DNA of 64,000 nucleotides from an archaeon (GTDB lineage Archaea > Aenigmatarchaeota > Aenigmatarchaeia > Aenigmatarchaeales > JACQIB01). Where the stretch lies: contig DATDSO010000010.1 of assembly GCA_035291225.1 (NCBI GenBank), forward strand, positions 82,090 through 146,089. The letters run 5' to 3'. Of the stretch, positions 22,237-49,423 are shown in pieces. Under the pieces are notes generated by a model. That model was not told the DNA's origin. It did not search any database and worked only from the letters and a program-made list of their open reading frames with translations. Each line of letters begins with the position of its first letter. The stretch's first letter is position 1. Both the position numbers and the translations under genes were made by a program.

Positions 22237-22245
22237 GTGATAAGT

Positions 22246-23388
22246 ATGACAACTCTAAAAGAACTTGAAGAAACATTTCCTGAAAAAGTAATGGGTGAAC
22301 TGAAAGAAAATTTGAAAGGGATGGGCGAGAAAGAAAAGGAATTATTAATAAAAAAGTTTTTGGAAGTTTACTCGCGCAGCAAATTCGAGCCCGGCGAAGC
22401 AACAGGAATTATTGCAGCTCAAAGCATTTCCGAGCCTGCGACACAAATGACAATGCGAACATACCACGCGGCCGGCGCTGCAGCTGTGCAGGTTACTTTA
22501 GGCTTGCCTCGATTGGTGGAAATTTTTGATGCGAGAAAAGCTCCGACAACTCCTGCGATGATAATTCATCTACAAAAATCTTACAACACGCGCGAGAAGG
22601 CAGCAAAGATTGCTTCGGAAATCCGCGAAGTTCTTCTAAGTGACATATCATCTTCTGCTTCGATTGATTTGCTTAACCAGCAAATAGAAATTAATTTAGA
22701 TTCGAAGCAAATACGTGATGCGGGTGTGCGCGAATCTTCGATTGTGGATTCCCTTCGCGAACAGCTGAAGGGTGGGCCGGGTCTGCAGCATAGGGGAGAA
22801 AGAATTTATATAAAACCAAAATCTGAACTGACAGTAAAGGAAATGCAAAAGCTTCGTGGAAAGATTTTGGATGTGCACGTGAAAGGGCTAAAAGGAGTTA
22901 CGCACGCTGTTGTGAATCAAAAAGATAATGAATGGATTATTGCAACTTTGGGTAGCAACCTCGCAAAAGTTTTGGAAGTGGATGGAATCGATGCTGTCAG
23001 AACAACAACAAACAACATCCATGAGGTTGAAAGGGTTCTTGGAATAGAAGCTGCGCGCACAACAATTATCAATGAGGCTCTTAACACCTTGAAAGAGCAG
23101 GGTTTGGATGTCGATGCTAGGCATGTCATGCTGACTGCCGATGTTATGACAGTTGATGGAACAATAAAAGCAATTGGAAGATACGGAGTTGCCGGTTCAA
23201 AAGGCTCTGTTTTGGCGAGGGCTAACTTTGAGGAAACCATAAAGCACTTGACAAGAGCTGCTGCAACTTCAGAAGTTGATCACTTGGAGAGCATTGTAGA
23301 AAATGTGATGATAAACCAAGTTGTGCCTGTTGGCACTGGAATGTTTGATCTGACTTTCAAAATGCCGAGCAGGAAAAAGTCTGAGTAA
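22246..23388 (+). CDS. rpoA2: DNA-directed RNA polymerase subunit A'' (C-terminal third of Rpb1).
   Basis: Trigger-loop and bridge-region homology (GEPATQMTMRTYHAAG). A GGTGA SD lies 6 nt upstream of the ATG at 22246. Confidence 0.95.
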   Translation: MTTLKELEETFPEKVMGELKENLKGMGEKEKELLIKKFLEVYSRSKFEPGEATGIIAAQSISEPATQMTMRTYHAAGAAAVQVTLGLPRLVEIFDARKAPTTPAMIIHLQKSYNTREKAAKIASEIREVLLSDISSSASIDLLNQQIEINLDSKQIRDAGVRESSIVDSLREQLKGGPGLQHRGERIYIKPKSELTVKEMQKLRGKILDVHVKGLKGVTHAVVNQKDNEWIIATLGSNLAKVLEVDGIDAVRTTTNNIHEVERVLGIEAARTTIINEALNTLKEQGLDVDARHVMLTADVMTVDGTIKAIGRYGVAGSKGSVLARANFEETIKHLTRAAATSEVDHLESIVENVMINQVVPVGTGMFDLTFKMPSRKKSE

Positions 23389-25308: not shown

Positions 25309-25728
25309 TTATGAAATTTTTAAAACTGTTAAACTTTTCGTGCTTTCCACTCCTTCTATTGCACGGATTTTTTCTATTATACCATTAAAACTTTCCGCGC
25401 TGTCTGTTGAAACTTCAACAACAACATCTGTTTCCCCTGCGGTCTCGAAAACTTTTTTCACTCCAGAAATTTCAAGAAATTTTTTTACAACTTTTTCTGT
25501 TTGCACGCGCGGCAAAGTATTTACAAGAACAACTGCCGCAAAGCCTGCGCGCGTTGAGAGCTCAACTGTGAAGCGCTTGATTACTCCGGCTTTTTTTAAT
25601 TTTTCTATTCTCTGCCTGACTGTTCCTTCGGAAACTTTAAATTTTTTTCCCAGCTCTGCGTTTGTCTGCCATGCATCCCGCTCAAGCTCGCGCAGGATTT
25701 TTTGGCTTAGGTTTAGTTTTTCTTCCAT
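25309..25728 (-). CDS. Lrp/AsnC-family transcriptional regulator.
   Basis: N-terminal HTH (NAELGKKFKVSEGTVRQRIEKL) plus a C-terminal RAM domain. Confidence 0.85.
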   Translation of the reverse strand: MEEKLNLSQKILRELERDAWQTNAELGKKFKVSEGTVRQRIEKLKKAGVIKRFTVELSTRAGFAAVVLVNTLPRVQTEKVVKKFLEISGVKKVFETAGETDVVVEVSTDSAESFNGIIEKIRAIEGVESTKSLTVLKIS

Positions 25729-25865
25729 AGAATATCACGATTTTCGTATATTTATTAGCTTTTTCTATTTATAAGGTTTATTTCTAGTTGATATTATACA
25801 GAATAATTACTGAAAGCGAAAGTTTAAATAGGTTCAGTTGCAGATGAATTTTAGGTGATTAAAAT

Positions 25866-26057
25866 ATGAAAAATAATGGCGGACGAGTTGATATAAGTCC
25901 TGATGGAGATCGTGTTATAATAAGAAGACAAGGAAGCCTTCCGAGCACATATTGGAGAGAAAACAGAGGATTTTATTTGAAAGAATCTCATGTTGAAGGT
26001 GGCATGCATACAGGACTTTACGTTCCGATGTGGAACCCGAGCAATGGCGGCTGTTAG
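25866..26057 (+). CDS. Small hypothetical protein (63 aa), first of a cluster of small ORFs.
   Basis: GGTGA SD 8 nt upstream. Gly/Arg/Asp-rich. No known motif. Confidence 0.3.
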   Translation: MKNNGGRVDISPDGDRVIIRRQGSLPSTYWRENRGFYLKESHVEGGMHTGLYVPMWNPSNGGC

Positions 26058-26210
26058 ATGAATCCCATGATACCTGTTGTTGATGAAGATTATTTTGAGT
26101 GATTGAATGGCAAGCGAAAGAAGAACCACAAGCTTGGAAGAGAGTTGGCTGAATGCAGTTATGATAACTTTGCCAGAGGAAGATTGTAATAATTAATTTG
26201 GTGAAAAAAT

Positions 26211-26408
26211 ATGGCAGAACATGATGACAGAGGACCGGATCCAGGACCGCAGGAGCCAATAGGCATAAGCAACAGAAGGCCTGCTCCCAGAGTTTATGGA
26301 GGCGCCATGGTGTATGACGTGTTAGAGGATCTATTTCGGAGAGATGAACCAAGAGTTTATTTCGCGCGAGTTGGCCGCCAAGATTTGTGGCTCCTGAAAG
26401 TTAGGTGA
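26211..26408 (+). CDS. Small hypothetical protein (65 aa) of the MA-start family.
   Basis: GGTGA SD 8 nt upstream. The 5' end ATGGCAGAAC... is shared with neighbouring small ORFs. Confidence 0.35.
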   Translation: MAEHDDRGPDPGPQEPIGISNRRPAPRVYGGAMVYDVLEDLFRRDEPRVYFARVGRQDLWLLKVR

Positions 26409-26464
26409 AAAATATGATGCCAGAAATTGATGAAGATATTGGAGATTTTTGAGGGGATTTTTTT

Positions 26465-26623
26465 ATGGCAGGAAGAACGCCGATTGTAGAAGCAGAAGAA
26501 GGCTTTGATGGAAACGATGGAGATCCTCATGCGCCTGTTGGGCTTCCTGCATATGGAAGTTCAGGCGGGATAGGAGACTACTCTGCTGGCAACGGAGGAA
26601 CTGATGTGTACAACGAGATTTGA
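26465..26623 (+). CDS. Small hypothetical protein (52 aa, Gly/Asp-rich) that is not in the ORF track.
   Basis: ATGGCAGGAAGAAC start with a GAGGGG SD-like motif upstream. It translates to MAGRTPIVEAEEGFDGNDGDPHAPVGLPAYGSSGGIGDYSAGNGGTDVYNEI. Confidence 0.3.
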   Translation: MAGRTPIVEAEEGFDGNDGDPHAPVGLPAYGSSGGIGDYSAGNGGTDVYNEI

Positions 26624-26626
26624 AAA

Positions 26627-27184
26627 ATGATTTTTATGGCCAGAAGAAATTTTGATATAATTGATGCCGATCCCGGCAGAATAACTGCATTAACAGGAAG
26701 CGTGTTTCCATACGATTCTGTAAGAGTAGGTGGCAGAAATTATATTCGCTCCGATTTCTCCCGGGAAGAAGATGGGACATGGACTGGTGTTTATAGAGAC
26801 GCCGAATTGGGCGGAGTTGATCCATGGGATGTATGGAATGATGTGTTCACCGCCAATGGCGGCAGTGTTCCTATTTTTCAACATTCTATTGGAGGAAATG
26901 TCCCACCAACAGAATTTGTCAGATTCAGAAGGCCAGAAACTCCTTCTATCCCTTTAGCATATTCTCAGCCACCTCAGAAACAAGAAAGTTATGAATCCCA
27001 AATGAAAAGAATGACTATAGATGTGTTGCCTGAACCGGATATGGTCAGATACGGCGCAGCAACTAGCGCTGGAAGATATGTTCCTGCTTATTTCCCCGGA
27101 ATGGATACGCGCACACCAGAAGGACTTGGATTTCCAGGGAGATTAGTTTTAGCAAGTTCTTTGCCAGGCGGGAAGAAAAAATAA
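26627..27184 (+). CDS. Hypothetical protein (185 aa) of the MA-start small-ORF family.
   Basis: Begins ...ATGGCCAGAAGAAAT. It is Gly/Pro/Asp-rich with no known domain. Confidence 0.4.
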   Translation: MIFMARRNFDIIDADPGRITALTGSVFPYDSVRVGGRNYIRSDFSREEDGTWTGVYRDAELGGVDPWDVWNDVFTANGGSVPIFQHSIGGNVPPTEFVRFRRPETPSIPLAYSQPPQKQESYESQMKRMTIDVLPEPDMVRYGAATSAGRYVPAYFPGMDTRTPEGLGFPGRLVLASSLPGGKKK

Positions 27185-27241
27185 TTCTGCATTGGAATTT
27201 TTTTCGGTTTTTATTTTTAGATTTTTCTAAAAAATTTAAAG

Positions 27242-28394
27242 GTGATAAAAATGATACCACGAATAAACACAACTCAACTTACAAGGGAGCTGATAGGGAT
27301 AAGCTCTGTCAGCGGAAGCGAGACAGCGATAGCGGAATTTATCCTAGAATATTTAGAAGGCCACGGATTTGCTCCCAGATTAGTTGCTGGAAGATTTTCC
27401 GAAAGAGATTGGATTAATGTTGTTTGCGAATCTGGCGCAAGGAATTCCAAAAGAATTGCTTTGAACGCGCATATTGATACTGTTCCTGCTGGCGACGGCT
27501 GGGAAACAAATCCTCTTGAAGCAGTTGAAAGAGGTGGGAAAATATACGGTCGTGGCGCAGCTGACATGAAAGCAGGCTTAGCAGCGCAACTAAACGCTTT
27601 CGTAGAGCTCGGCGATACGTATGATTTGATTTTAACAGCAGTTTCAGATGAGGAAGGAATATCGCGCGGCACAAATGCTCTTGCTGACCAAGGAATTTAC
27701 AATGGCTGCTCTGCTGCGATTTTTTCAGAGCCAAACACTTCAGTCAGAAATGAAAGCGATTATGAAATTAGAATAGGCGGCAGGGGGAGATATGTTTTTG
27801 AAGTTCATGTGAGGACAGCAGGCGGGCATGGGGCAAAGGAAAAGAGAGCAAATGCAATACTGGAGGCTTCAAGATTCCTGAATGAAGTCCATGAATTTGA
27901 AACTGATGAGCATCCTATAATGGGAAGGGCCAGATACAATATAGAATCAATTGGCGGCGGCGCTGGGGGATTCCTCTCAACTCCAAATCATTGTGTTGTT
28001 CAGATCAGCAGGTTCGCTCTTATTGGAGAAAATCTTGAAAGCTGCAAAAAAAGAGCTGGAGGGAATTGTAAGAGAAAGAGTTAGAGATGCGGATGTAAGT
28101 GTTGCTGTTCAGCAAAGAGAAACTCCATTCTGCCAGCCATATCTGAATGATGCAAACAACAGAATTGTGCAGTGCGCCCAGTCTGCTTACAGGAATATTG
28201 GAATTGATCCGCGGCTGACAGCTCCGTCTGTTTATGATATTTCAGTAGTTGGCGGGAGACTTGGAATTCCATCAATAAACATTGGTCCAATCGGTGGAGA
28301 TATACATGCTGCGAATGAATTTGTTTATGCGAGCTCTGTTGGAAATTTCGAAAGGGTTTTGAGAGGAACAATAAGGAGATACCAAGGTGATTGA
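27242..28394 (+). pseudogene. M20-family metallopeptidase (ArgE/DapE-like) interrupted by a +1 frameshift around 27990-28050.
   Basis: The N-terminal part (27242-28084) carries M20 motifs HIDTVP, GRGAADMKAG and DEEG. The C-terminal part continues in a different frame (27951-28394) with ...GPIGGDIHAANEFV. The two ORFs overlap by ~130 nt. Confidence 0.55.
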
Positions 28395-31337: not shown

Positions 31338-33434
31338 TCAGGCGTTCGTTTCTTGTTCCTCTTCTTCAGAATCTTGTTCTTCGTACACCTCGCTTACGCT
31401 GCCGAGTATTGTTCCGAATACATCTGTTGGATCTTTAATTGTTTTTATCTGCCCACCGCTTTCCTCAATCAGTTGAGTGAGTGCATTTTTTGCAGGATAT
31501 TTAACTATATGCAAAAGCGCAAGTTTGTTTCCGCGAGAAGTTGCTGTGCGTATAAACTCATTTGTTTCCTCGCTGATTTGGGAATTAAGTTCATCGATTT
31601 CGGCATCGGTTATCAAAACAGTAAAAACTGGATCTTTGTTTTTCTTGAGGATTTGTGTCATTGTTCCAGAAGGCAGAATTGTTCCTCCATTGGCTTCCTC
31701 TTTTGCCAAAAACACATTTTCGGCGCGCATGTAATTGGTTGTCCATTCTGTGTGCAGTTCTTCTGGGTATGGATCTGCATACGTTGCGCTGAAGTCAAGA
31801 GCGGCAACTCTTGCTCCGTGCTTTCCAGCTAAATCAAGAGCAGCAAAGGCTCCGACATTAGCTGACTCGTATTTTTTATCAAAAGCCATACTTCCAGAAG
31901 AGTCTCTGATGATAAGCAGATCAGGCCTTGCTACATAAACTTTGTGGCCTTTTCTAACCATCCTTGTTCTTTCTTTTAGCGTTGTTCTTCCCGGAATCAT
32001 TTCTGGAGAAATTGAAAGGGATTTCTGCACATCCAACTCTTCAACAGAGTCCCCGATATTCCACTTGCCAAAATATGTTCTTCTCGGTCTCCCTCTTCCT
32101 TTCTGAGTGGGCTTAACTTCCATCAAGTTTGCCGCTTTAACCCTGTACCAATATCTTTTTAATTCTCCCTCTTGAATGCCGGCTGCGCTCATAACTACTT
32201 TAAAATTTTCATAATTATTTTCATTTCTGCTGAAAGCTTCGGAAGCGTAAGCAGCCTGCTCTTCCTCGCTCATTTGCGGCGTGGTGCCTACCATGGCTCT
32301 TATATCAATCGGCAAACCTGCTTTGTTGGGGTATTCTTTTTTATCAGAGCATTTGCAGCCCGCGCCCTCTCCTTCTTTTTTCTCCTCTTGTTTTGATTTT
32401 CTTTGCGGCCTTCCTTGACCTCTGCCTTCAACAGGAATTGAAGGCGGCGCATATCTCCTTCCTTCCTGATCTTTAGATTTTTCATCTCCTTTTAACTTCT
32501 TTAAAATTCTTTTAATTATTTCACCTCTTCCGAAACCCGGCTCTTTCTCTTCTTGCTCTTTTCCTGGGCTTCCTCCCTGACCGCCGCTACCATCAACAGG
32601 CAGCCCCATATTTCCTTTCATACTTTGGTCTTGTTTCATTTGCTGGTTTTGTAATCTTTGCTGCTCTCTTAAAGCATCTTTTCTCATCACAGGCCCAATA
32701 ACTTTAGAGAACTCGCCGATCTTATCGTACCAGAGGCCCGAATCCCTATAATCTTTTCCAAGAACTTCTGCAACTCTTTCCGCTGCTTCTACTTCATGCC
32801 TGCTTAATCCTAAAGCTTCAACACCAAGATCAGTGTTCCACATTGATTCGTATGCTTTGTGAAATATTTTTACTGACTGGGATGCTTCCCCTTCCAATTT
32901 TTTATCCACGAGATTTTTAACATATTTCATGAATTCCCTTCGCCACCATTCCACAGTCTGGGAATTTGTTTTCTTTCCATAGCCATCTCTTCTCCAAGTG
33001 TCAATTACTATATCTCCGAATAGATTTACAATATTGTTTGCGTAATCAGGGACATGATCTCGTGGTATATTTTCTCCTGCCAATGATTTTGAAACAGCAT
33101 CAACCATTGCTGCCCTAGTTCTAATATCAAATGGAAAAATCTTGTAGTGAGTAATTTCATGCTCTGCACACTGCTGAAAATAATCTTCCTTCTCCCTTTC
33201 TGTCAAGCTGTCAGGTATTGCTGCTGCATTTAAATGCGGCCTCGCGCCTTCGTGCCATTCCAAACAAAAGGGGGACGGATCAGCAGGATCATAAATTATT
33301 TCAGGATCCGGAAGCTCGTTGCATGCTCTCATATTCCAACAGGCTCTATTGTAAACGCCTCCCCATCTTTGAAGATCAGCAGGGCTTTGAGGCTTTGCCT
33401 CTCTATCGCTTGCATCGGAGTTGTGTTCTGTCAT
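31338..33434 (-). CDS. Large vWA (MIDAS) domain protein, the MoxR partner. It has an N-terminal domain with HExxH, a low-complexity linker and an acidic tail.
   Basis: The C-terminal vWA carries the MIDAS motif DSSGSM and a downstream TDAEID. The N-terminus carries AEHEITHY. A Gln/Gly/Lys/Glu-rich linker is present. The C-terminal tail reads EEQDSEEEEQETNA. Confidence 0.75.
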   Translation of the reverse strand: MTEHNSDASDREAKPQSPADLQRWGGVYNRACWNMRACNELPDPEIIYDPADPSPFCLEWHEGARPHLNAAAIPDSLTEREKEDYFQQCAEHEITHYKIFPFDIRTRAAMVDAVSKSLAGENIPRDHVPDYANNIVNLFGDIVIDTWRRDGYGKKTNSQTVEWWRREFMKYVKNLVDKKLEGEASQSVKIFHKAYESMWNTDLGVEALGLSRHEVEAAERVAEVLGKDYRDSGLWYDKIGEFSKVIGPVMRKDALREQQRLQNQQMKQDQSMKGNMGLPVDGSGGQGGSPGKEQEEKEPGFGRGEIIKRILKKLKGDEKSKDQEGRRYAPPSIPVEGRGQGRPQRKSKQEEKKEGEGAGCKCSDKKEYPNKAGLPIDIRAMVGTTPQMSEEEQAAYASEAFSRNENNYENFKVVMSAAGIQEGELKRYWYRVKAANLMEVKPTQKGRGRPRRTYFGKWNIGDSVEELDVQKSLSISPEMIPGRTTLKERTRMVRKGHKVYVARPDLLIIRDSSGSMAFDKKYESANVGAFAALDLAGKHGARVAALDFSATYADPYPEELHTEWTTNYMRAENVFLAKEEANGGTILPSGTMTQILKKNKDPVFTVLITDAEIDELNSQISEETNEFIRTATSRGNKLALLHIVKYPAKNALTQLIEESGGQIKTIKDPTDVFGTILGSVSEVYEEQDSEEEEQETNA

Positions 33435-33448
33435 TATCTCACCATAAA

Positions 33449-34228
33449 TTAAGGTTTGGTTCCTTTGTAGGTAGCAAAAACTTCATGAAATTTTTTCAAA
33501 ATTGACACAACGGTTTTAATCCCATATTTTTGTGCTGTTTTTCCAATAGAATCAAGCGGCGGAAGCTGCCTTAGCAAATGATTACCCCATTGATTATATT
33601 CCAATTCAGTGGGCGCTTCTATTTTTTTGTCTTCCAACGCATCCACTAAAACAGCCGTCATAATGGGGCGCATATCTTTGGGCATAAGCAGCGCAATCAT
33701 GTAAGGGTGGGCCACTTTTGCTCGCTTTTGTTTGACATCGGTATCTTCATTATAATTCTGCCCCGGCACATTTACATCAGTAACTTTACTCCCTTCTAAA
33801 AAATATTCCGGGAACAAAATTTTTAGATTTTCCAAATCAACAACTTCTCCAACATCTGCCACATCTGTTTCCAGCAAATATGGATTTATTCTTTTTAACA
33901 ATGAATGCCAAACAGGTCTTTTTAGCTCTACTTTCGAATTAAATCTGTTAACTCGCCTTTCTCCCGTATCAAAGTTCGGAACTAATGTTATGCAGTGCGG
34001 TCCAGCATATCTGATAAACAAATTGTCATGTCCATAAATTTTGCATAAATATTCTCCAAGAACTTTTTCCATTTGCTCAATCAATTGCGGCGGAGTTCCA
34101 TCGCCAGAAGGCGGGGCTTTCTCCGCATCCTTTAGGCTCCCGTCTCTTGGAGACACTGGCTGAGAGCCATGCCTTCTCTCAAGTGCTTCCTTTATTGATG
34201 GGCTGGATGGTTCTGCCATAAAAATCAA
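33449..34228 (-). CDS. Hypothetical protein, paralog B of a tandem pair in the MoxR-vWA operon.
   Basis: Shares the N-terminal PSSPSIKEALERRHGSQPVSPRDGS and colinear blocks (NPYLLETDVADV.., AHPYMIAL) with the upstream gene. Confidence 0.6.
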   Translation of the reverse strand: MIFMAEPSSPSIKEALERRHGSQPVSPRDGSLKDAEKAPPSGDGTPPQLIEQMEKVLGEYLCKIYGHDNLFIRYAGPHCITLVPNFDTGERRVNRFNSKVELKRPVWHSLLKRINPYLLETDVADVGEVVDLENLKILFPEYFLEGSKVTDVNVPGQNYNEDTDVKQKRAKVAHPYMIALLMPKDMRPIMTAVLVDALEDKKIEAPTELEYNQWGNHLLRQLPPLDSIGKTAQKYGIKTVVSILKKFHEVFATYKGTKP

Positions 34229-35037
34229 TTTCTGCCTCTGTAAAGATTTGCAACATCAACAACTGCTTTTATTATGGGCTTCAAATCTTTCACTCCGTAT
34301 TCTTCTGCTACTTTAGCAAAACATTCTAAAGGCGGAACAGAGCCCCAAAGACAGCTTGCAACTCTCCCCATTTTAACCTCCGTTGGAACAATAACCATTT
34401 TATTTTTTATTGCGAGGGTTATCACAGCTGTTACATATGGCCTGACATCAGGCACTACAGATAACGCAAGCATATATGGATTTGCCAGTTTAGCTCGTCT
34501 GATATTTTCAGCTTCATTATTATAATCATTATCAACGAATGTCTCTCTAAAAGTTTCCAAAGCAGGAATTTCAGGTAACATATCCTTCAAAGCTTCCAAG
34601 CTAACAGCTTCTTCAACCTGAGCCAGATCTGTTTCCAGAAGATATGGAGATTTTTTTCTCAAAATAGAACGCCACATCTGCCTGCTCACACTGTCAGCTA
34701 ATCTTGGCTTAAAGCTACTTAAATTAGAATTTTGAAATACTGGCTCAACGAAAAGCAAGTAAGGCCCCATCCCTTTTAATGAAAAATGGTCATTTTCATA
34801 AATTTTATGAAGGCAGTCTCCCAACACCACTTCCATTTCTTCGAGAAGTTCTATCGGTATTTCACCTGTATGCGCAGAAAATTTTTTTCCGGCCTTTTCG
34901 CTTTCACTGCTATCTGAACCGCTCCCGTCTCTTGGGGATACTGGCTGAGAGCCATGCCTGCGTTCAAGAGCCTCTTTAATTGATGGGCTTGATGGAGGAC
35001 TTGGAGGTCCGCTTTCCATTTTATCACCTCTGTCCAC
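34225..35037 (-). CDS. Hypothetical protein, paralog A of the tandem pair. The true start may be the internal MESGPPS.
   Basis: The same N-terminal 23-aa motif and colinear blocks (SPYLLETDLAQV.., ANPYMLAL). It overlaps the stop of the MoxR gene. Confidence 0.6.
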   Translation of the reverse strand: MDRGDKMESGPPSPPSSPSIKEALERRHGSQPVSPRDGSGSDSSESEKAGKKFSAHTGEIPIELLEEMEVVLGDCLHKIYENDHFSLKGMGPYLLFVEPVFQNSNLSSFKPRLADSVSRQMWRSILRKKSPYLLETDLAQVEEAVSLEALKDMLPEIPALETFRETFVDNDYNNEAENIRRAKLANPYMLALSVVPDVRPYVTAVITLAIKNKMVIVPTEVKMGRVASCLWGSVPPLECFAKVAEEYGVKDLKPIIKAVVDVANLYRGRN

Positions 35038-36502
35038 TGCCGGGGTTTCTAAGTCTCTCGCGTATTAACGCCCTAAGTTGGTTTTGCGCACCCAGAGGCA
35101 AAGAACGGTATTCAGGTCTTCTCAAGTCTAACATCATTGTTGCAAGCTCTTGCGGATTTTTCATGCCGCCGATGCGGCCAACATTGTCTCTGTAAAGAGC
35201 ACTGTCCATTCCTTCAACAAAAGGAACCATATCTAATTTCACAATCAAGTCATCAAACTGTTGAAGCTTTTGGACATCTGAAGAATTTCCTTTGCCTTCC
35301 AGCAGAGTAAGGTAAATTTTTTCTGCTTCCAGTCTCTGATCCAACTTTCTCATGGAAATTTTCCAAGCGTCTCCAACCATTTCCATGAGGTTTCCATTAT
35401 AAGGGTCTTTCATCAAAATTTGATCATTGGGTTTTATTCTATGATATAAAGCATACGGGGCCATAGCTCCAGCAACCTCTACTGAAACCGAAGGCTGATC
35501 CAAAAGCCATGCAACTCTTTTTGCAACTTTGCTCCATCTTTCATGAGTTCTTGTGGAAATGTGGGCATCGGTCATCTGGCATGGATTTTTTATTCCAACC
35601 GCAGAAACTTTTATGTCAGTAGCATAGTGGCATTTGTTGCACAAACCTTCGGATGGTTTTCCCCTTCCTTTAGCTTTATCACCGTCGGCTTTTATGCAAA
35701 GCGATAATTCTTTTTCAAAGTAAGTCATCTGCAACATGGCATCCGAGTCAATCGGAATTTTATCTGCTTCTTTTGTTGCTTCTGTCAAATCTTCAAATGT
35801 CGTAATTTGCTCTAATCCTCTGCCATGAAGAGAAACATCTTTTCTGCCTGCAATCTCAGCCAAGTCTGCCATAGAAGCTGGCTCAACAGGGCAAGATAAA
35901 ACGAAACGGTCGTACATAGCTGGGTCAACTTCAAATGTTCCTTCTCCAAAAGGATTTATGGTTCCAAAAACTCTTTGATCGGGAACAACGAAAGCCGCGT
36001 CTGCATATTTCCAAACGCCCTCTTCTATACCTGCGAAAAACATATTCATAACTTCCGGAGAGGCTCTGTTGAACTCATCTGCCACCTTCCACCTTCCAAG
36101 CGTCCATTTTCTGGGCACAGGAACTTCTTGAGGATTATTTCTGTCCAATAATTTTGCCATGTCTGGGCGAGCGACTATTTTTTCTTCTGTTTGCTCTGGG
36201 TGAAGCCTAAGAACATTAGTTTCAATTTCTGATTCAGGTATGCCTGCAAGCATTACACCCAATGCTTTTGCTAGAGAAGTTTTTCCGTCTCCATGTCCAC
36301 CCACATATAGAATTGTGCCACCCGGTGTTATTGCTGTTGCGATTCCTAAAAATGCCGCCGCCTCATAAGATTCTCTCTGTTTTACACCACCCCGATCCAC
36401 GACAACACGAAAAGGATCGGAGCTATTCAGATAAATAAGCCTGTCTCCCAATGTGTAATAGGCGCTCATTAATTTATCTCTAAGCTTCTCTGGATTAGCC
36501 AT
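35024..36502 (-). CDS. MoxR-family AAA+ ATPase with an extended Cys-containing C-terminal region.
   Basis: Walker A GGHGDGKT. The MoxR-specific Walker B region VADEFNRASPEV. Sensor-1 region FGTINPFGEGTFEVDPAMYDRF. A promoter-like AAGCTTTATATA lies ~35 nt upstream on the minus strand. Confidence 0.8.
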   Translation of the reverse strand: MANPEKLRDKLMSAYYTLGDRLIYLNSSDPFRVVVDRGGVKQRESYEAAAFLGIATAITPGGTILYVGGHGDGKTSLAKALGVMLAGIPESEIETNVLRLHPEQTEEKIVARPDMAKLLDRNNPQEVPVPRKWTLGRWKVADEFNRASPEVMNMFFAGIEEGVWKYADAAFVVPDQRVFGTINPFGEGTFEVDPAMYDRFVLSCPVEPASMADLAEIAGRKDVSLHGRGLEQITTFEDLTEATKEADKIPIDSDAMLQMTYFEKELSLCIKADGDKAKGRGKPSEGLCNKCHYATDIKVSAVGIKNPCQMTDAHISTRTHERWSKVAKRVAWLLDQPSVSVEVAGAMAPYALYHRIKPNDQILMKDPYNGNLMEMVGDAWKISMRKLDQRLEAEKIYLTLLEGKGNSSDVQKLQQFDDLIVKLDMVPFVEGMDSALYRDNVGRIGGMKNPQELATMMLDLRRPEYRSLPLGAQNQLRALIRERLRNPGSGQR

Positions 36503-45469: not shown

Positions 45470-48400
45470 ATGGGTTGTAATAAATTATTATTAGCTCTTG
45501 CTGTATTTTCTATTTTAATAATTTCTGTAGCAGCAACTCCAGCGCTTGCCGCAGATCCTGTAACAGATTTTTTTAATTGGCTTTTTGGAGTAACCGGAGC
45601 GCAGACAGGAAATGAAACTCCGGCATCTTCAAGCAGCACAACATCAAGTTCAACCACAACAACTACATCAATACCCAGCTGCGAGGGACCAATACCTTCT
45701 TCAGGATGTACATGTCCCAGTCCGGGCGGACCCGTTTATTATAGCGGCTTTTGTTGTAGCAATACTTATCAGGCCTCTACAGCTTGCGGAACAACTTCAA
45801 CTTATACTACAGCAACTTCCTCCTCTTCATGCCCATCTTCTGTCCTTTCTGTTTTAGGAGAAGGATGCCACTTCATGTACACCGGAAGTGATGGAAGATC
45901 TATTTATTGCAACAGCGGAATGACGCGCTCAATGAAAGAGAGCGACACAGCAGCGAAAGACGGATGCACGTCTGACACAACCACAACAACTTATTCCGGA
46001 ACAACAACCTCCTCTCTTCCTTCCACAAGCACCCCATGCACAATTGGCTCTGCGATAACTTCTCTCTGCAACTGCGGCGGGTATTCTTATAATTCTGGAT
46101 ATTGCTGTTCTTCAACATCGGGTTCAGGAAGCGGATATTTCCAGAGCAATGCCTGCGGGACAACCACAACTTATTACACTTCAACAACTTACTCTTCAAC
46201 ATGCCCTTCCACTGTTCTTTCTGTTTTAGGAACAGGATGCCATCAGATGTATACAGGAAACGATGGTAAAACAATTTACTGCGATAGTGGAATGACGCGC
46301 TCAATGAAAGAAGGAGACACCGCCTCAAAAAGTGGATGCACATCTGAATCAAATGTTTGTAGTTCCTCAAATCCGTGGTATTGCTATGATCAAACTTCTT
46401 GCACAGGAGTCTCTGCAAACTGGTGCAAGAGCAGCAGCACAAGTGGCGGATATTGCTCAACCTCAACATGCCCAACTTGTTCAAAGGACAGCGCATGGAA
46501 TTGTTATGACCAGAGCGGCTGCACAGGAGCTGGCGGAAATTGGTGCCAATCAGGAGGTTCAAGTTATGGATATTGTCAAAATTCTGCATGCCCAACCTGC
46601 AGTTCTTCGAGTCCATGGAATTGTTATGATGAAACTTCTTGCAAAGGAGCAACAGGAAATTGGTGCAAGAGTTCTGCCTCCTCGGGAGGAACTGCTACAT
46701 ACAGCTCTGGCTGGTGTTCTTCAAGTTCATGCCCAACCTGCGCCTCAACTTCAAAATATAATTGTTATACAGAAACAGACTGTAAAGGAGCAACAGGAAT
46801 CTGGTGCGGTTCTCAATCAGGTTCAGGAGGATATTGCGGTGAAGCGGTTTGCCCAACTTATACTTGTTCAAAGAGCGAGCCATGGAACTGTAAAGACCAA
46901 ACAACTTGTTCTGGCGCAGGAGCGAGCTGGTGCTCCGGCTCCGGAGGATATGGATATTGTTCAAGCTCATGCCCAACCTGCGACAAAACTAATCCGTGGA
47001 ATTGTTATACAAAAGAAGCGTGTACTGGCGTGAGTGCGCAATGGTGTTCGGGCTCGGGTGGTTATGGATATTGTTCCAGTTCAACATGTCCAACATGTAG
47101 CTCAACAACAAAATATAATTGTTACGATGAAACTTCCTGTAAAGGCGCAACGGGAAGCTGGTGCATTTCCCAATATGGAGGAAGCGGTTGGTGTCAAGAT
47201 TATTCATGTCCAACTTATACTTGTTCAAAATCAGAACCTTGGAATTGTAGAGATGAAACAACCTGTAAAGGTGCAGGAGCAAGCTGGTGCGGCAGTTGGT
47301 GTCAAACTAGCTCTTGCCCGACTTGTTCAAAATCTCAGATATGGAACTGCAACACAAAAGAAACTTGTACAGGAACAGGAGCAAACTGGTGCACAAGTCA
47401 AAATATAGCTTATGCTACGGCAGCGGGTGGAGCAGCAGCATCATCGCCACCGTCGTCTGGTTGGTGTCAAGAATCTTCCTGCCCAACTTACGCTTGTTCG
47501 AAAACAGAACCTTGGTATTGTTATGACCAGAATTCTTGCTCAGGAGCAGGAGCGAGTTGGTGCACTGGTTATGGCGGAGCAGGAGGTTATTGCCAAAGCG
47601 GATCCTGCCCAACTTATACATGCTCTTCTTCAAATCCATGGAATTGTTTCAAAGAAGAAGAATGCAAAGGAGCAGGAGCGCGGTGGTGTGTGACAACATC
47701 ATATGGAACTACCTTAAATGGGTGGTGCTCAAATTCCTGCCCAACTTGCAGCTCAACACAAAAGTATAATTGTTTTGATAAAACTTCCTGCGCGGGCAGC
47801 GATGGATACTGGTGCGGTACAGAATCAACAGGATGGTGCGCTGACCAAAAATGCGCCACTTGCAGTACAACCCAGCCATGGAACTGTTATGATAAAGAAA
47901 CATGCACAGGGGCAAGCGGAAGTTGGTGCACAAATCAATACAGCACTTATGGATCAACCGCAGTTGTTTCATCCGGCTGGTGCCAATCTAATGATTGCCC
48001 AACATGTTCAAAATCCCAGCCATGGAATTGTTTTATTGAAACAGACTGCAAAACAAACGGAGGCAACTGGTGCGGCACGTGGTGTCAAGACAGCTCATAC
48101 CAATGCCCATCAACAAAGGGCTACAATGTAGAGGAGAAAAAAGAAAATTTCATAAAACCTGAAAATTGCAAAGAGCAAAAAGATTCTAATACAGGTTACA
48201 CTAATTATGTTTGTGAAAAGAAGACTGAAGAAAAATGTCCAGAGCTTTCGGTAGATGTAAAAGAGAAATGCGAATCAAATAGTGGAAAGCTTACGATAAA
48301 GAAAGATAGGCGTGGCTGCGAATTTACAGACTGCAGATTCAAAGAAGAGTTTAATCCAGACAAGAAATTTATTTTAAAGAAATTTGACCGCTGCCCAACA

Positions 48401-49423
48401 GATGCTGAATTAAATGAATATCAAAGTTCCTGCGAAAAATCTGGCGGCACACTGAAAACAAGCTTGGAAGGCGGTTGTAAAATAGGATTTTGTTTGAACG
48501 CTGATGAGAATGAATGTGAAAGAGAAATAAATCCAAAGTTTGAGAAAGAGATCGAAGAGAAATGCAAGAAAGAGGGACTTGTGGTTGTGAAAGACTTTGA
48601 TCCGCGCGGCTGCACGGTTTTGCACTGCGGCGAACAAGACTTCTGCAAGAAAGTCCCGAAGAATGCTTATAGTGAGTGCGAGAACCAAGGCGGTGAGCTT
48701 GTTGTTAAAACAGATGAAAGAGGGTGCGCGACTTTCTCTGAATGTGTAAGGCCTGGAGATGAAAAAGTTTATTTGGAGGAGCATGAGAAAATAACTGAAA
48801 TTCCGGATGAAACAGAATTGCTTTCCCTTGCTTTGAAGCTCGAGGAATTAAAAGTTTCGTTTGATAAGATGTCAACTCAGGCAAAGGATCTGGCTAATTA
48901 TTATAAATCAACAGGAAGTTCAGAAGCTAAGAAGTTAACAAGAGTCGCAGATATGTTTGCTGCTGCTACTGGAAAAATAGATGAAATAAAAACAGCATTG
49001 AGAAACAAACTAACAACAATAACGCCGGCTGATTTAGAGGAGATAAAGCTTGAGATAAGGACAATCAGGAAAGTGACTTTGAAGGACATTTTGTATGTTA
49101 TGCTTAGCACAAAAGATGATGTGAAAGATATCGTTGATGAAAAGGAAAAAGATTGCGGCATAGATGGGCTCTGCTTTGACAAGAGCTTCAGAATATGCCA
49201 AAAAGCAATAATGAGATCTGACCAAGAGGGAACGTTTGTAAGAATAACTGGAGAAAGCGATGGAAAGTGCTTGATGGAAGCTGAAGCAAAAGTCGCTGGA
49301 ATCGCAGTTTCAATGAAATGCGAAGTGCCGAACTATGCTCTTGGATTTAAGAACCCAGAAACAGATGTACTTCCATACTGCACGGGCGGTTTAGTTGATG
49401 CTATAAAAACGGGAAAGGTTTAG
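45470..49423 (+). CDS. Giant secreted Cys-rich tandem-repeat protein (putative surface/adhesin protein).
   Basis: N-terminal signal peptide. S/T-rich tracts. More than 20 tandem ~40-aa modules of the form CPTC-x(3-5)-WNCY-x(3)-C-x-GA-x-G-x-WC. Four C-terminal C..C..GC..C modules in a Lys/Glu-rich region. Confidence 0.75.
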   Translation: MGCNKLLLALAVFSILIISVAATPALAADPVTDFFNWLFGVTGAQTGNETPASSSSTTSSSTTTTTSIPSCEGPIPSSGCTCPSPGGPVYYSGFCCSNTYQASTACGTTSTYTTATSSSSCPSSVLSVLGEGCHFMYTGSDGRSIYCNSGMTRSMKESDTAAKDGCTSDTTTTTYSGTTTSSLPSTSTPCTIGSAITSLCNCGGYSYNSGYCCSSTSGSGSGYFQSNACGTTTTYYTSTTYSSTCPSTVLSVLGTGCHQMYTGNDGKTIYCDSGMTRSMKEGDTASKSGCTSESNVCSSSNPWYCYDQTSCTGVSANWCKSSSTSGGYCSTSTCPTCSKDSAWNCYDQSGCTGAGGNWCQSGGSSYGYCQNSACPTCSSSSPWNCYDETSCKGATGNWCKSSASSGGTATYSSGWCSSSSCPTCASTSKYNCYTETDCKGATGIWCGSQSGSGGYCGEAVCPTYTCSKSEPWNCKDQTTCSGAGASWCSGSGGYGYCSSSCPTCDKTNPWNCYTKEACTGVSAQWCSGSGGYGYCSSSTCPTCSSTTKYNCYDETSCKGATGSWCISQYGGSGWCQDYSCPTYTCSKSEPWNCRDETTCKGAGASWCGSWCQTSSCPTCSKSQIWNCNTKETCTGTGANWCTSQNIAYATAAGGAAASSPPSSGWCQESSCPTYACSKTEPWYCYDQNSCSGAGASWCTGYGGAGGYCQSGSCPTYTCSSSNPWNCFKEEECKGAGARWCVTTSYGTTLNGWCSNSCPTCSSTQKYNCFDKTSCAGSDGYWCGTESTGWCADQKCATCSTTQPWNCYDKETCTGASGSWCTNQYSTYGSTAVVSSGWCQSNDCPTCSKSQPWNCFIETDCKTNGGNWCGTWCQDSSYQCPSTKGYNVEEKKENFIKPENCKEQKDSNTGYTNYVCEKKTEEKCPELSVDVKEKCESNSGKLTIKKDRRGCEFTDCRFKEEFNPDKKFILKKFDRCPTDAELNEYQSSCEKSGGTLKTSLEGGCKIGFCLNADENECEREINPKFEKEIEEKCKKEGLVVVKDFDPRGCTVLHCGEQDFCKKVPKNAYSECENQGGELVVKTDERGCATFSECVRPGDEKVYLEEHEKITEIPDETELLSLALKLEELKVSFDKMSTQAKDLANYYKSTGSSEAKKLTRVADMFAAATGKIDEIKTALRNKLTTITPADLEEIKLEIRTIRKVTLKDILYVMLSTKDDVKDIVDEKEKDCGIDGLCFDKSFRICQKAIMRSDQEGTFVRITGESDGKCLMEAEAKVAGIAVSMKCEVPNYALGFKNPETDVLPYCTGGLVDAIKTGKV
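46340..48110 (+). repeat. Coding tandem repeat array (about 22 six-cysteine modules, ~115-130 bp each) inside the giant gene.
   Basis: Recurring nucleotide words (tcatgcccaacctg, ccatggaattgttat, ggtgcaagag) at ~120-bp spacing. Opposite-strand ORFs over this region are repeat-induced artefacts. Confidence 0.7.

Follow-up and report, generated by a model that had tools for sequence, protein, structure and literature searches.

Short genes that lack homologues, evolve rapidly, encode weakly structured products and are annotated as hypothetical are familiar in prokaryotes as taxonomically restricted ORFans. In the DPANN archaea, which have tiny genomes, most lineage-specific genes are unexplained. 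Small genes also occur in better-described settings. Bacterial attenuators of the trp, his, thr and leu type make use of leader peptides; we know of no archaeon in which leader-peptide attenuation has been established. Clusters that encode precursors of ribosomally synthesized and post-translationally modified peptides (RiPPs) contain several small same-strand open reading frames (ORFs) with similar first codons and variable bodies. In archaea, lysine operons such as lysWXJK of Sulfolobus are linked to regulators of the Lrp family (LysM/FL11). FL11, one of the feast/famine regulatory proteins (FFRPs), is the lysine sensor of Pyrococcus, and archaeal FFRP sites have the form abcdeWWWedcba (PMC2715240). 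The protein LysW, one of the LysW/ArgW amino-group carrier proteins, has a C-terminal EDWGE motif that ends in Glu, and it carries three to four zinc-binding cysteines in a globular domain of about 54 amino acids (aa) (PMC10433800). It is also an established pattern that biosynthetic pathways are low in their own cognate amino acid (PMC4209129). Here, we relate these systems to a cluster of small genes in a 64,000-nucleotide (nt) stretch of an archaeal contig (DATDSO010000010.1, positions 82,090 to 146,089), which we refer to in its entirety as the window.

The cluster consists of seven consecutive cistrons on the plus strand, located at 25866-27184 of the window, that encode 63, 14, 29, 65, 12, 52 and 185 aa. 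We hold with moderate confidence that it is an Lrp-linked, lineage-restricted operon of an Aenigmarchaeota-like (DPANN) genome whose products are made when lysine is scarce. These products comprise one small basic beta protein, several acidic proteins that are probably disordered, and two acidic micro-peptides. Our comparison covers the window and two sister lineages, designated L003 and L009, in which the locus is found at the same place beside an Lrp gene that is 96% identical. The closest named relative, as judged by the Lrp gene, is a Candidatus Aenigmatarchaeota metagenome-assembled genome (78% identity).

We rate the locus as an Lrp-associated, amino-acid-linked operon that is populated by ORFan small proteins. 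Its likeness to archaeal lysine operons consists of a divergent Lrp-type regulator that is nearest to FL11, an FFRP-type palindrome, an M20 gene of the ArgE/DapE/LysK family downstream, with DapF next in L003, and products that are poor in lysine. It differs from these operons in that the small ORFs persist where the enzymes have been lost. Searches of Pfam and NCBIfam revealed no homology between the cluster ORFs and any lysine-pathway protein, and no LysX/ArgX ATP-grasp or RimK domain was found among the window ORFs that were scanned with Pfam or among the L003 neighbours. The cistrons share the above-mentioned properties of ORFans, i.e., they are short, homologue-free, fast-evolving, weakly structured and annotated as hypothetical. 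However, unlike typical ORFans, the seven cistrons make up a single operon that is tightly coupled and has conserved junctions, as well as a duplicated module and conserved micro-ORFs of 11-12 aa, and they exhibit a specific amino-acid avoidance that is common to the neighbouring enzymes. The locus also recalls RiPP precursor clusters, in that its small ORFs, all on one strand, begin with similar codons but have variable bodies. In contrast to these, however, the shared N-terminus is only Met-Ala, and the neighbouring genes encode Lrp, an M50 protease, M20 and lysyl-tRNA synthetase (LysRS). No RiPP tailoring enzyme (YcaO, LanM or a radical S-adenosylmethionine (SAM) protein of the SPASM type) and no C39 transporter is adjacent to the cluster. 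The radical-SAM genes of the window contain a Radical_SAM_C domain and a wyosine-formation domain, and are more than 13 kb away from the cluster.

In this locus, lineage-specific DPANN genes can be recognized from sequence alone as real, co-organized and cassette-exchanging. If the proposed link to lysine is true, avoidance of an amino acid could serve as a criterion by which small ORFan proteins are placed in starvation regulons, and the locus would point to small proteins and peptides of 11-12 aa that an auxotrophy-prone symbiont makes under lysine shortage. If the link is false, the locus is still a clean case of small-gene turnover at a recombination-prone site among core genes.

Organization and coding character of the cistrons

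The original prediction described same-strand ORFs of 63, 65, 52 and 185 aa, accompanied by shorter ones, and proposed that they might be a family of small-protein genes. We recovered all four, along with three shorter ORFs of 14, 29 and 12 aa. Codon usage, selection and conservation at the same site indicate that this is a cluster of real small genes, but these genes form a family only weakly. The gaps between each stop codon and the next start codon are, in order, 0, 4, 14, 5, 12 and 3 nt. The first cistron, which we call ORF A (63 aa, 25866-26057), encodes a basic protein (isoelectric point 9.0) whose C-terminus is NGGC. It is followed directly by the micro-ORF t1 (14 aa, 26058-26102; MNPMIPVVDEDYFE), which has a conserved core, MIPVVDEDYFE, that begins at 26067, and then by an acidic 29-aa ORF (26107-26196; MASERRTTSLEESWLNAVMITLPEEDCNN). 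Next come a 65-aa ORF that begins with MAEHDDRGPDPGPQ (26211-26408), the micro-ORF t2 (12 aa, 26414-26452; MMPEIDEDIGDF), whose C-terminus is DEDIGDF, and a very acidic, Gly/Asp-rich 52-aa ORF with a net charge of -8 (26465-26623). The last cistron is the 185-aa ORF (26627-27184), which NCBI calls as 182 aa from the ATG at 26636. Its C-terminal end is GRLVLASSLPGGKKK, and the product carries a conserved hydrophobic-polybasic tail.

All seven cistrons have coding-type codon usage. We evaluated this property with a log-odds test that was trained on 50 window genes, with stop codons left out of all models, and that was calibrated using 195 spurious ORFs located inside real genes. The scores of the seven ORFs range from 0.11 to 0.40, compared with 0.10 +/- 0.09 for 60-codon chunks of real genes and -0.25 +/- 0.14 for spurious ORFs, and at most 0.5% of the spurious ORFs attain the scores of the seven cistrons. 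Individual scores are 0.118 for ORF A, 0.25 for t1, 0.12 for the 29-aa ORF, 0.127 for the 65-aa ORF, 0.40 for t2 and 0.295 for the 52-aa ORF. An antisense ORF of 145 aa (25915-26352, minus strand) was rejected as spurious: its score is -0.20, and it has no counterpart in L003.

The products had been described as rich in Gly, Asp, Pro and Arg, and these four residues indeed make up a pooled fraction of 0.369, compared with 0.198 +/- 0.037 (maximum 0.29) in 50 other window genes. The G+C content of the region, which had been thought to exceed that of its surroundings, is elevated, but only slightly (0.434 versus 0.414 for the window, corresponding to the 85th percentile of equal-sized segments). 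This rise is explained by codon position 2, i.e., by amino-acid composition, since G+C at this position is 0.48 in the cluster versus 0.35-0.42, while G+C at codon position 3 (GC3) is 0.33, which is equal to or below that of host genes. We rejected foreign GC-rich DNA as an explanation because GC3 does not rise above the host level.

Our analysis modified what had been said about the starts of these genes. The expected ATGGC start, encoding Met-Ala, is present in the 29-, 65- and 52-aa ORFs and at the second ATG (26636) of the 185-aa ORF, but not in the 63-aa ORF, which starts with ATGAAAAAT (MKNN). Met-Ala starts are enriched in the cluster (4 of 7 cistrons versus 2 of 54 genes elsewhere, Fisher p = 9e-4), and no similarity among the proteins that share them was found further into their sequences. 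A GGTGA Shine-Dalgarno (SD) sequence had been assigned to at least three of the four named ORFs. It is found upstream of the 63-aa ORF (AGGTGAT, 25853-25859) and the 65-aa ORF (GGTGA, 26200-26204), but not upstream of the 52- and 185-aa ORFs, and thus applies to two of the four. GGTGA is additionally present upstream of t2 (AGGTGA, 26403-26408) and of the M20 gene, and its count of 4 in 1.4 kb compares with 0.72 expected (P = 0.006). The SD sequence of the 52-aa ORF is GAGGGGA and that of the 29-aa ORF is GAGTGA; the sequence upstream of the 185-aa ORF holds no convincing SD.

We infer that the cistrons are translationally coupled, given the spacing of 0-14 nt between stops and starts and the fact that the stop often lies inside the SD of the next cistron. 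In the junction motif GTTAGGTGA, for example, a TAG stop in one frame and a TGA stop in another are combined with an SD for the following cistron. The TGA stop of the 65-aa ORF is similarly located within the SD of t2. Ribosomes would move from cistron to cistron via these stop-embedded SDs.

A putative archaeal promoter of the cluster is located at 25812-25830 on the plus strand. It consists of a purine-rich stretch resembling a B recognition element (BRE) and a TATA box, TTTAAATA (25823-25830), that lies 36-43 nt 5' of the first ATG. In an alignment, the promoter block AAAGCGAA.GTTTAAATAGGTT is invariant across the window, L003 and L009; the equivalent position in a more distant lineage, L010, reads GCTTAAATAAG. 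Transcription from this single promoter would yield a polycistronic mRNA of roughly 1.35 kb that ends at the T tracts after 27184. The intergenic region in question (27185-27250, plus strand) contains a T7 tract at 27198-27204, T5 tracts at 27208-27212, 27214-27218 and 27222-27226, and the SD of the M20 gene at 27240-27246. This region is about 97% identical in L003, and is probably a terminator plus the translation-initiation region of M20. The window segment 27160-27255 folds better than all 200 shuffled versions (z -3.07). Its L003 counterpart shows no such excess (z -1.2), and the first hairpin, which covers the last codons, is not robust when taken on its own (z -0.27).

Lysine avoidance and the Lrp regulator

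In total, the seven products contain 8 lysines and 35 arginines in 420 aa. Lysine thus amounts to 1.9%, whereas the rest of the window genes have 8.2% when pooled and 8.7% as an average per gene (P = 3e-8). It is the most depleted residue of the cluster (4.3-fold), and Glu is unchanged. Lysine is entirely absent from the 52-aa ORF, the 29-aa ORF, t1, t2 and two L009 proteins, and in the 147-aa protein of L003 it is confined to a terminal KKK. A similar bias is found in adjacent enzymes. The ratio R/(K+R) of the window's M20 gene, 0.71, is the extreme of 57 window genes (mean 0.32 +/- 0.13), and the corresponding values in L003 are 0.90 for M20, 0.81 for a C26 family gene and 0.73 for DapF. The ratio is normal in Lrp, M50 and LysRS. 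M20 (DapE/LysK family) and DapF are lysine-pathway-type genes. Because GC3 of the cluster is host-like and Arg is mostly encoded by AGA, one transition away from AAA, the bias operates at the level of amino acids and does not reflect foreign DNA. Moreover, the ORFs turn over quickly, yet none of the three lineages has given up their lysine-free character, which suggests that selection probably maintains the bias. From the persistence of lysine avoidance despite this turnover, and from its occurrence in lysine-pathway neighbours, we infer that the proteins are made when lysine is scarce. The association of lysine avoidance with an operon of small ORFs is new.

The regulator gene (25309-25728, minus strand) is divergent from the cluster and encodes an Lrp/AsnC (FFRP) transcription regulator with matches to the Pfam families AsnC_trans_reg and HTH_24/HTH_AsnC. 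Its closest solved homologue is PH1519/FL11 (E 3e-16). The control region at 25729-25865 contains a candidate FFRP-type palindromic box, ACGA-TTT-TCGT, at 25737-25747, between the Lrp start codon and a TATA-like element of Lrp (25767-25774). The box fits abcdeWWWedcba at 12 of 13 positions and is identical in L003. It is also the sole match to ACGAWWWTCGT in the 64 kb, where 0.09 matches are expected by chance. The operon and the divergent Lrp gene would share this control region of 137 bp, and Lrp probably controls the operon. In our proposed mechanism, the operon would be a member of a lysine-responsive Lrp regulon and would be expressed under lysine scarcity. The facts support, short of proof, a lysine-limitation regulon.

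It is important to consider several observations that weigh against this interpretation. Many FFRP hits are similar, with FL11 at the top of the list (63 bits), and the specificity for an effector is unreadable from the match. The FFRP box is not conserved in L009. Poverty in lysine could be a by-product of a disorder-type composition that is rich in Gly, Pro, Asp and Arg. In addition, the small ORFs are still present in the window, where the neighbouring lysine-pathway genes are broken, and in L009, where those neighbours are gone. This means that the small ORFs cannot require an intact M20 or DapF for their function, and that they cannot be simple accessory subunits of those enzymes. Other points concern the evidence for the operon in general. 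Since we compared three lineages only, conservation statistics are pairwise. The dN/dS ratios of the 52- and 29-aa ORFs are not significantly below 1 (0.55 for the 52-aa ORF), and the 65-aa ORF is without an orthologue in L003 or L009. Finally, the near-identical junction blocks could stem from recent recombination between lineages, as opposed to functional constraint.

The most serious alternative is that the operon is real and lineage-restricted but has nothing to do with lysine. Its composition would then be that of disordered, fast-evolving proteins, and its adjacency to Lrp, M20 and LysRS would be a coincidence. The AlphaFold2 model of the 182-aa protein, most of which is low-confidence and unstructured, fits this explanation, as does the summed Gly, Asp, Pro and Arg fraction of 0.37. 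In the lineages of the window and L009, the small ORFs have also outlasted M20 and DapF, and homology ties them to no pathway. Against this explanation, lysine is the most depleted of all residues while Glu is unchanged, and Lys is replaced by Arg via AGA codons. Furthermore, the M20, C26 and DapF proteins encoded next door are well folded and show the same bias, at the extreme of 57 genes, and disorder cannot explain the bias of such proteins. We give an operon unrelated to lysine a fair probability, though a lower one than that of a lysine-linked operon.

A more elaborate version of the lysine hypothesis is that the locus is a lysine-starvation device. In this proposal, the KKK-stop beside the oligo-U tracts would serve as a ribosome-mediated lysine sensor for the DapE-like and DapF genes, and/or the acidic micro-peptides (ending in DEDYFE and DEDIGDF) would act as minimal LysW-like handles, or as competitors, for M20 and the C26 gamma-glutamyl-type hydrolases. 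We consider this a long shot. What recalls bacterial leader-peptide attenuators is that an otherwise nearly lysine-free ORF ends in KKK-stop. From this stop, it is 14 nt to the oligo-U tracts and about 65 nt to a gene of the lysine-pathway type, and KKK is conserved in both lineages that have the 147/185-aa ORF. However, the "leader" in this case would be 147-185 aa long and is under protein-level selection. No alternative terminator/antiterminator pair is evident either. The above-mentioned hairpin over the last codons is unconserved, and L003 folds differently. The Lys codons (AAGAAAAAA; region 27173-27226) could base-pair with the T7/T8 tract that follows 14 nt later, being complementary to it, and the predicted fold of L003 pairs them, though no better than in shuffles.

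The comparison with LysW leads to a similar assessment. t1 is small, acidic and lysine-free, and its DEDYFE ending, which is acidic and aromatic with a terminal Glu, recalls the EDWGE of LysW, but this is a resemblance only, and the motif itself is absent. In contrast to LysW, t1 (11-14 aa) and t2 (12 aa) have no Cys and ORF A has a single, C-terminal Cys; the length and the zinc-binding cysteines of LysW are absent from all of the small ORFs. Compared feature by feature, neither the KKK-stop sensor nor the LysW-like handle shows the full set of features of the class that it resembles.

Cassette combinations in sister lineages

In L003, the locus consists of an ORF A orthologue (64 aa), a 51-nt linker with a 10-aa ORF, t1 with its own SD, the 29-aa ORF and a 147-aa ORF. 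Downstream are an intact 380-aa M20 gene, a gene of the C26 family resembling glutamine amidotransferases (GATases), DapF, a 231-aa gene and LysRS. In L009, an A' ORF (70 aa, ending in GDGGC) is followed by a linker that encodes a t1-like sequence, MDMILLDYLEFENN, then by t2, a 64-aa ORF, a 48-aa ORF and, directly thereafter, LysRS; both M20 and the 185-aa gene are missing. The promoter and the stop/SD/start junctions are near-identical across lineages, and the gene bodies are very divergent. As read from these alignments, the three lineages hold different combinations of the same cassettes at one site. Recombination at the conserved junctions probably swaps, duplicates or deletes cassettes, and would account for the differences between lineages.

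Individual cistrons differ considerably in how they are conserved. ORF A has about 57% identity to its L003 orthologue (dS at least 1.4) and matches its L009 orthologue with a z of 8.1; all three proteins end in GGC. In L003, the peptide encoded by t1 is unchanged, the micro-ORF is preceded by an SD of its own (TTAGGTGATAGC-ATG), and the sole nucleotide change is synonymous. The 29-aa ORF is 86% identical in L003. Over the block formed by t1 and the 29-aa ORF, 3 of about 21 synonymous sites have changed, compared with 45-58% in neighbouring genes (p = 0.003). L009 encodes exactly the same t2 peptide, and about 80 nt of junction sequence are identical there except for a single synonymous change. 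Thus, substitutions between lineages in t1 and t2 are exclusively synonymous. The 52-aa ORF has a 64-aa orthologue in L009 (z 19) with the core DGNDGDPHAPVGLP and an identical block of 41 nt. In both the window and L009, this 41-nt block (within 26508-26573, plus strand) also encodes METMEILMRLLGF in the +1 frame, which could be due to chance or could impose an additional constraint, accounting for the frozen state of the synonymous sites. The 65-aa ORF has marginal similarity (z 3.1) to the N-terminal part of the 147-aa protein of L003. That protein, P0002, shares 54% identity with the C-terminal two thirds of the 185-aa ORF, in which the N-terminal half is variable and the last 60 aa are conserved.

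Purifying selection acts on ORF A and the 185-aa ORF in the frames that are annotated, although both evolve several-fold faster than their neighbours. In comparison with L003, dN/dS is 0.26 for ORF A (Fisher p = 1.6e-4) and 0.38 for the C-terminal two thirds of the 185-aa ORF (Fisher p = 5e-5), whereas it is 0.06 for Lrp and 0.10 for M50. In both cases, the annotated frame has the lowest pN/pS: 0.47 versus 0.86-0.91 for ORF A, and 0.55 versus 1.0-1.2 for the 185-aa ORF.

The original prediction called for aligning the ORFs with each other in search of paralogy. Such paralogy is limited to t1 and t2 with their upstream junctions, about 40 nt that include an ORF end, an SD and an acidic micro-ORF; the other pairs of ORFs have z below 3. 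The end of the 63-aa ORF with the t1 junction is 74% identical over 38 nt to the end of the 65-aa ORF with t2, a similarity that was reached in 4 of 1000 shuffles (t1-t2 z 4.2). The operon may have grown in the window lineage by duplication of a module comprising an ORF end, an SD, an acidic micro-ORF and a Met-Ala ORF. ORF A is similar by eye to the N-terminal half of the 185-aa ORF, but we rejected them as paralogues at z below 3. Another similarity involves the start of M20 (AGGTGATAAAAATGATACCA, MIP...; 27240-27259), which resembles the SD and start of t1 and t2 (26403-26422; 5846-5866 in L003) in the pattern AGGTGA...ATGAT[A/G]CC[A/T], with the N-termini MIP/MMP. The micro-ORF units may be derived from duplicated copies of the M20 initiation region.

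These comparisons bear on the originally raised hypothesis of gene decay, in which stops and frameshifts would have broken up one or two larger genes and left the small ORFs as fragments. Some observations are in line with it. Frames continue across single stops (63|TAG|14 and 12|TGA|52|TGA|185), and the locus is eroding, as M20 is frameshifted and C26, DapF and M20 are missing in some lineages. Also, L010 has the same TATA/SD arrangement followed by a single gene of 154-160 aa at the position of ORF A, and the C-terminus of its protein has a marginal similarity to ORF A (z 3.7). However, the stops, each of which has an SD and a start after it, are kept across lineages at dS of about 0.7-1.1, which argues against one decayed gene. 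Likewise, dN/dS is 0.26-0.38 in the annotated frames, all pieces have coding-type codon usage, one junction is out of frame in L009, and no longer intact homologue was found among 1.84 billion representatives. With conserved stops, SDs and starts, selection in the annotated frames and no longer homologue, we reject decay of a larger gene as very unlikely.

Two further observations concern L010. The weak hit of its 160-aa protein suggested a remnant of an ADP-forming acetyl-CoA synthetase, which lies beside Lrp in Bathyarchaeia (L021); we rejected this candidate, as tblastn against the window, L003, L009 and L010 found nothing. Directly after the 154-160-aa gene, on the opposite strand, positions 5290-5400 of L010 contain a sequence that is tRNA-like by appearance only.

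Searches for homologues were consistent with a narrow distribution. None of the small ORFs matched Pfam, PHROGs, NCBIfam, PADLOC or sequences in the PDB, in agreement with the predicted lack of known domains. A word-index search with the 185-aa protein found P0002 as the only homologue, and with ORF A it found the query itself only. A profile search of the 1.84 billion representatives retrieved P0002, one fragment of the query and two repeat-protein artefacts. The latter, the giant proteins P0005 and P0006, were rejected as relatives of the 185-aa protein because their scores arise from 8-10 weak matches to internal repeats. We also followed the original suggestion to look for homologues in metagenomes; a scan with the micro-ORF pattern matched the L003 lineage only. 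Based on these searches, the cluster proteins have no detectable relatives beyond the two sister lineages.

The AlphaFold2 single-sequence model of ORF A has a predicted local distance difference test (pLDDT) score of 70 and six beta strands, and no match to it was found by Foldseek in the PDB or BFVD. The ...GGC terminus of ORF A suggested a ubiquitin-like sulfur carrier; we rejected this reading, since there is no ThiS/MoaD hit in Pfam and the predicted beta meander has no Foldseek match. The model of the 182-aa protein, in which beta strands are predicted only at residues 7-55, is too poor for a fold search (pLDDT 36).

The idea that the cluster is a degraded prophage or toxin remnant, also part of the original prediction, can be generalized to the remains of any mobile element, virus or toxin-antitoxin-like module that was inserted between core genes. 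In its favor, gene content is hypervariable among close relatives within a conserved core neighbourhood, basic and acidic small proteins alternate, and the genes are ORFans. However, the cluster ORFs have no match in PHROGs, PADLOC, 50,697 phage records, 72,556 plasmids or IMG/VR, and PADLOC and Pfam models of toxins, antitoxins or defence proteins gave no match at E <= 1. tRNA genes are absent from the window, scans that covered the flanks showed neither an integrase nor terminal repeats, GC3 and Arg codon choice are host-like, and the promoter block is shared with the more distant L010, which has a different gene there. Given also the core genes on its flanks, we think a mobile origin very unlikely. 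A diversity-generating retroelement was likewise rejected: no reverse transcriptase is present among the scanned ORFs, there is no template-like repeat, and the population is clonal across assemblies.

The least probable alternative, which we regard as highly improbable, is that the conserved nucleotide blocks act as non-coding or cis-regulatory RNA with incidental overlying ORFs: synonymous sites in the t1 and 29-aa block, the t2 junction and the 41-nt core of the 52-aa ORF are far more conserved than in neighbouring genes, but the locus has no Rfam match even at E <= 10, the predicted folding of the blocks does not surpass that of shuffled sequences on either strand (z +1.7 to -1.1), the codons that they contain are used as in coding sequence, and their coincidence with stop/SD/start junctions means that translation signals explain the constraint. 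With no Rfam support and no folding signal, we also rejected a C/D-box or other small RNA within these blocks.

Neighbouring genes and gene loss

The flanking genes are as originally described, namely the Lrp/AsnC gene on one side and a frameshifted M20 peptidase gene on the other. The latter (27251-28394, plus strand) encodes an M20 deacylase of the ArgE/DapE/LysK family in two parts of 280 and 147 aa, and the Pfam domains Peptidase_M20 and M20_dimer match the two halves. The split is due to an A7 run (28046-28052) that is longer by one A than in the intact L003 orthologue. That orthologue (380 aa) matches the TIGR01910 DapE-ArgE model with 169 bits. Since the frameshift is the same in every independent assembly compared, the gene is either a pseudogene that has become fixed or one in which slippage occurs during transcription or translation. 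Lysine makes up 3.2% of the window M20 versus 1.1%, and its dN/dS of 0.20 is above that of neighbouring genes; both values would fit relaxed constraint.

The next gene downstream of the split M20 gene encodes a class I LysRS. Farther upstream of the cluster are genes for the M50 protease, a NusA-like KH protein, L7Ae, RpoB, RpoA' and RpoA''. With these core genes on its flanks, the cluster sits in a core-gene neighbourhood. The locus of the window is invariant across every assembly compared, and over 40 blocks of the sequence collection hold index entries for its proteins.

The lineages also differ in their complement of enzymes. L003 (7656-9943 and 4330-5016) has the C26 GATase-like gene, DapF and the 231-aa gene, all between M20 and LysRS, and a 228-aa gene between M50 and Lrp. 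The window is without all four of these genes, and L009 (1-2440) is additionally without M20. This stepwise loss looks like the erosion, within the clade, of a gene set of the lysine/diaminopimelate (DAP) type.

Elsewhere in the window, three further genes have no Pfam hit and lie in a row (698, 259 and 270 aa) beside an AAA_5 ATPase (dynein-related/MoxR-type), within 31338-36502 on the minus strand. An ORF of 1317 aa within 45470-49423 on the plus strand is likewise without a match in Pfam. In the window, the gene for RNA polymerase A'' (383 aa, 22237-23388) shows RNA_pol_Rpb1_5 only, and that of L003 (1-2122) has an intein with the domains Intein_splicing and LAGLIDADG_3.

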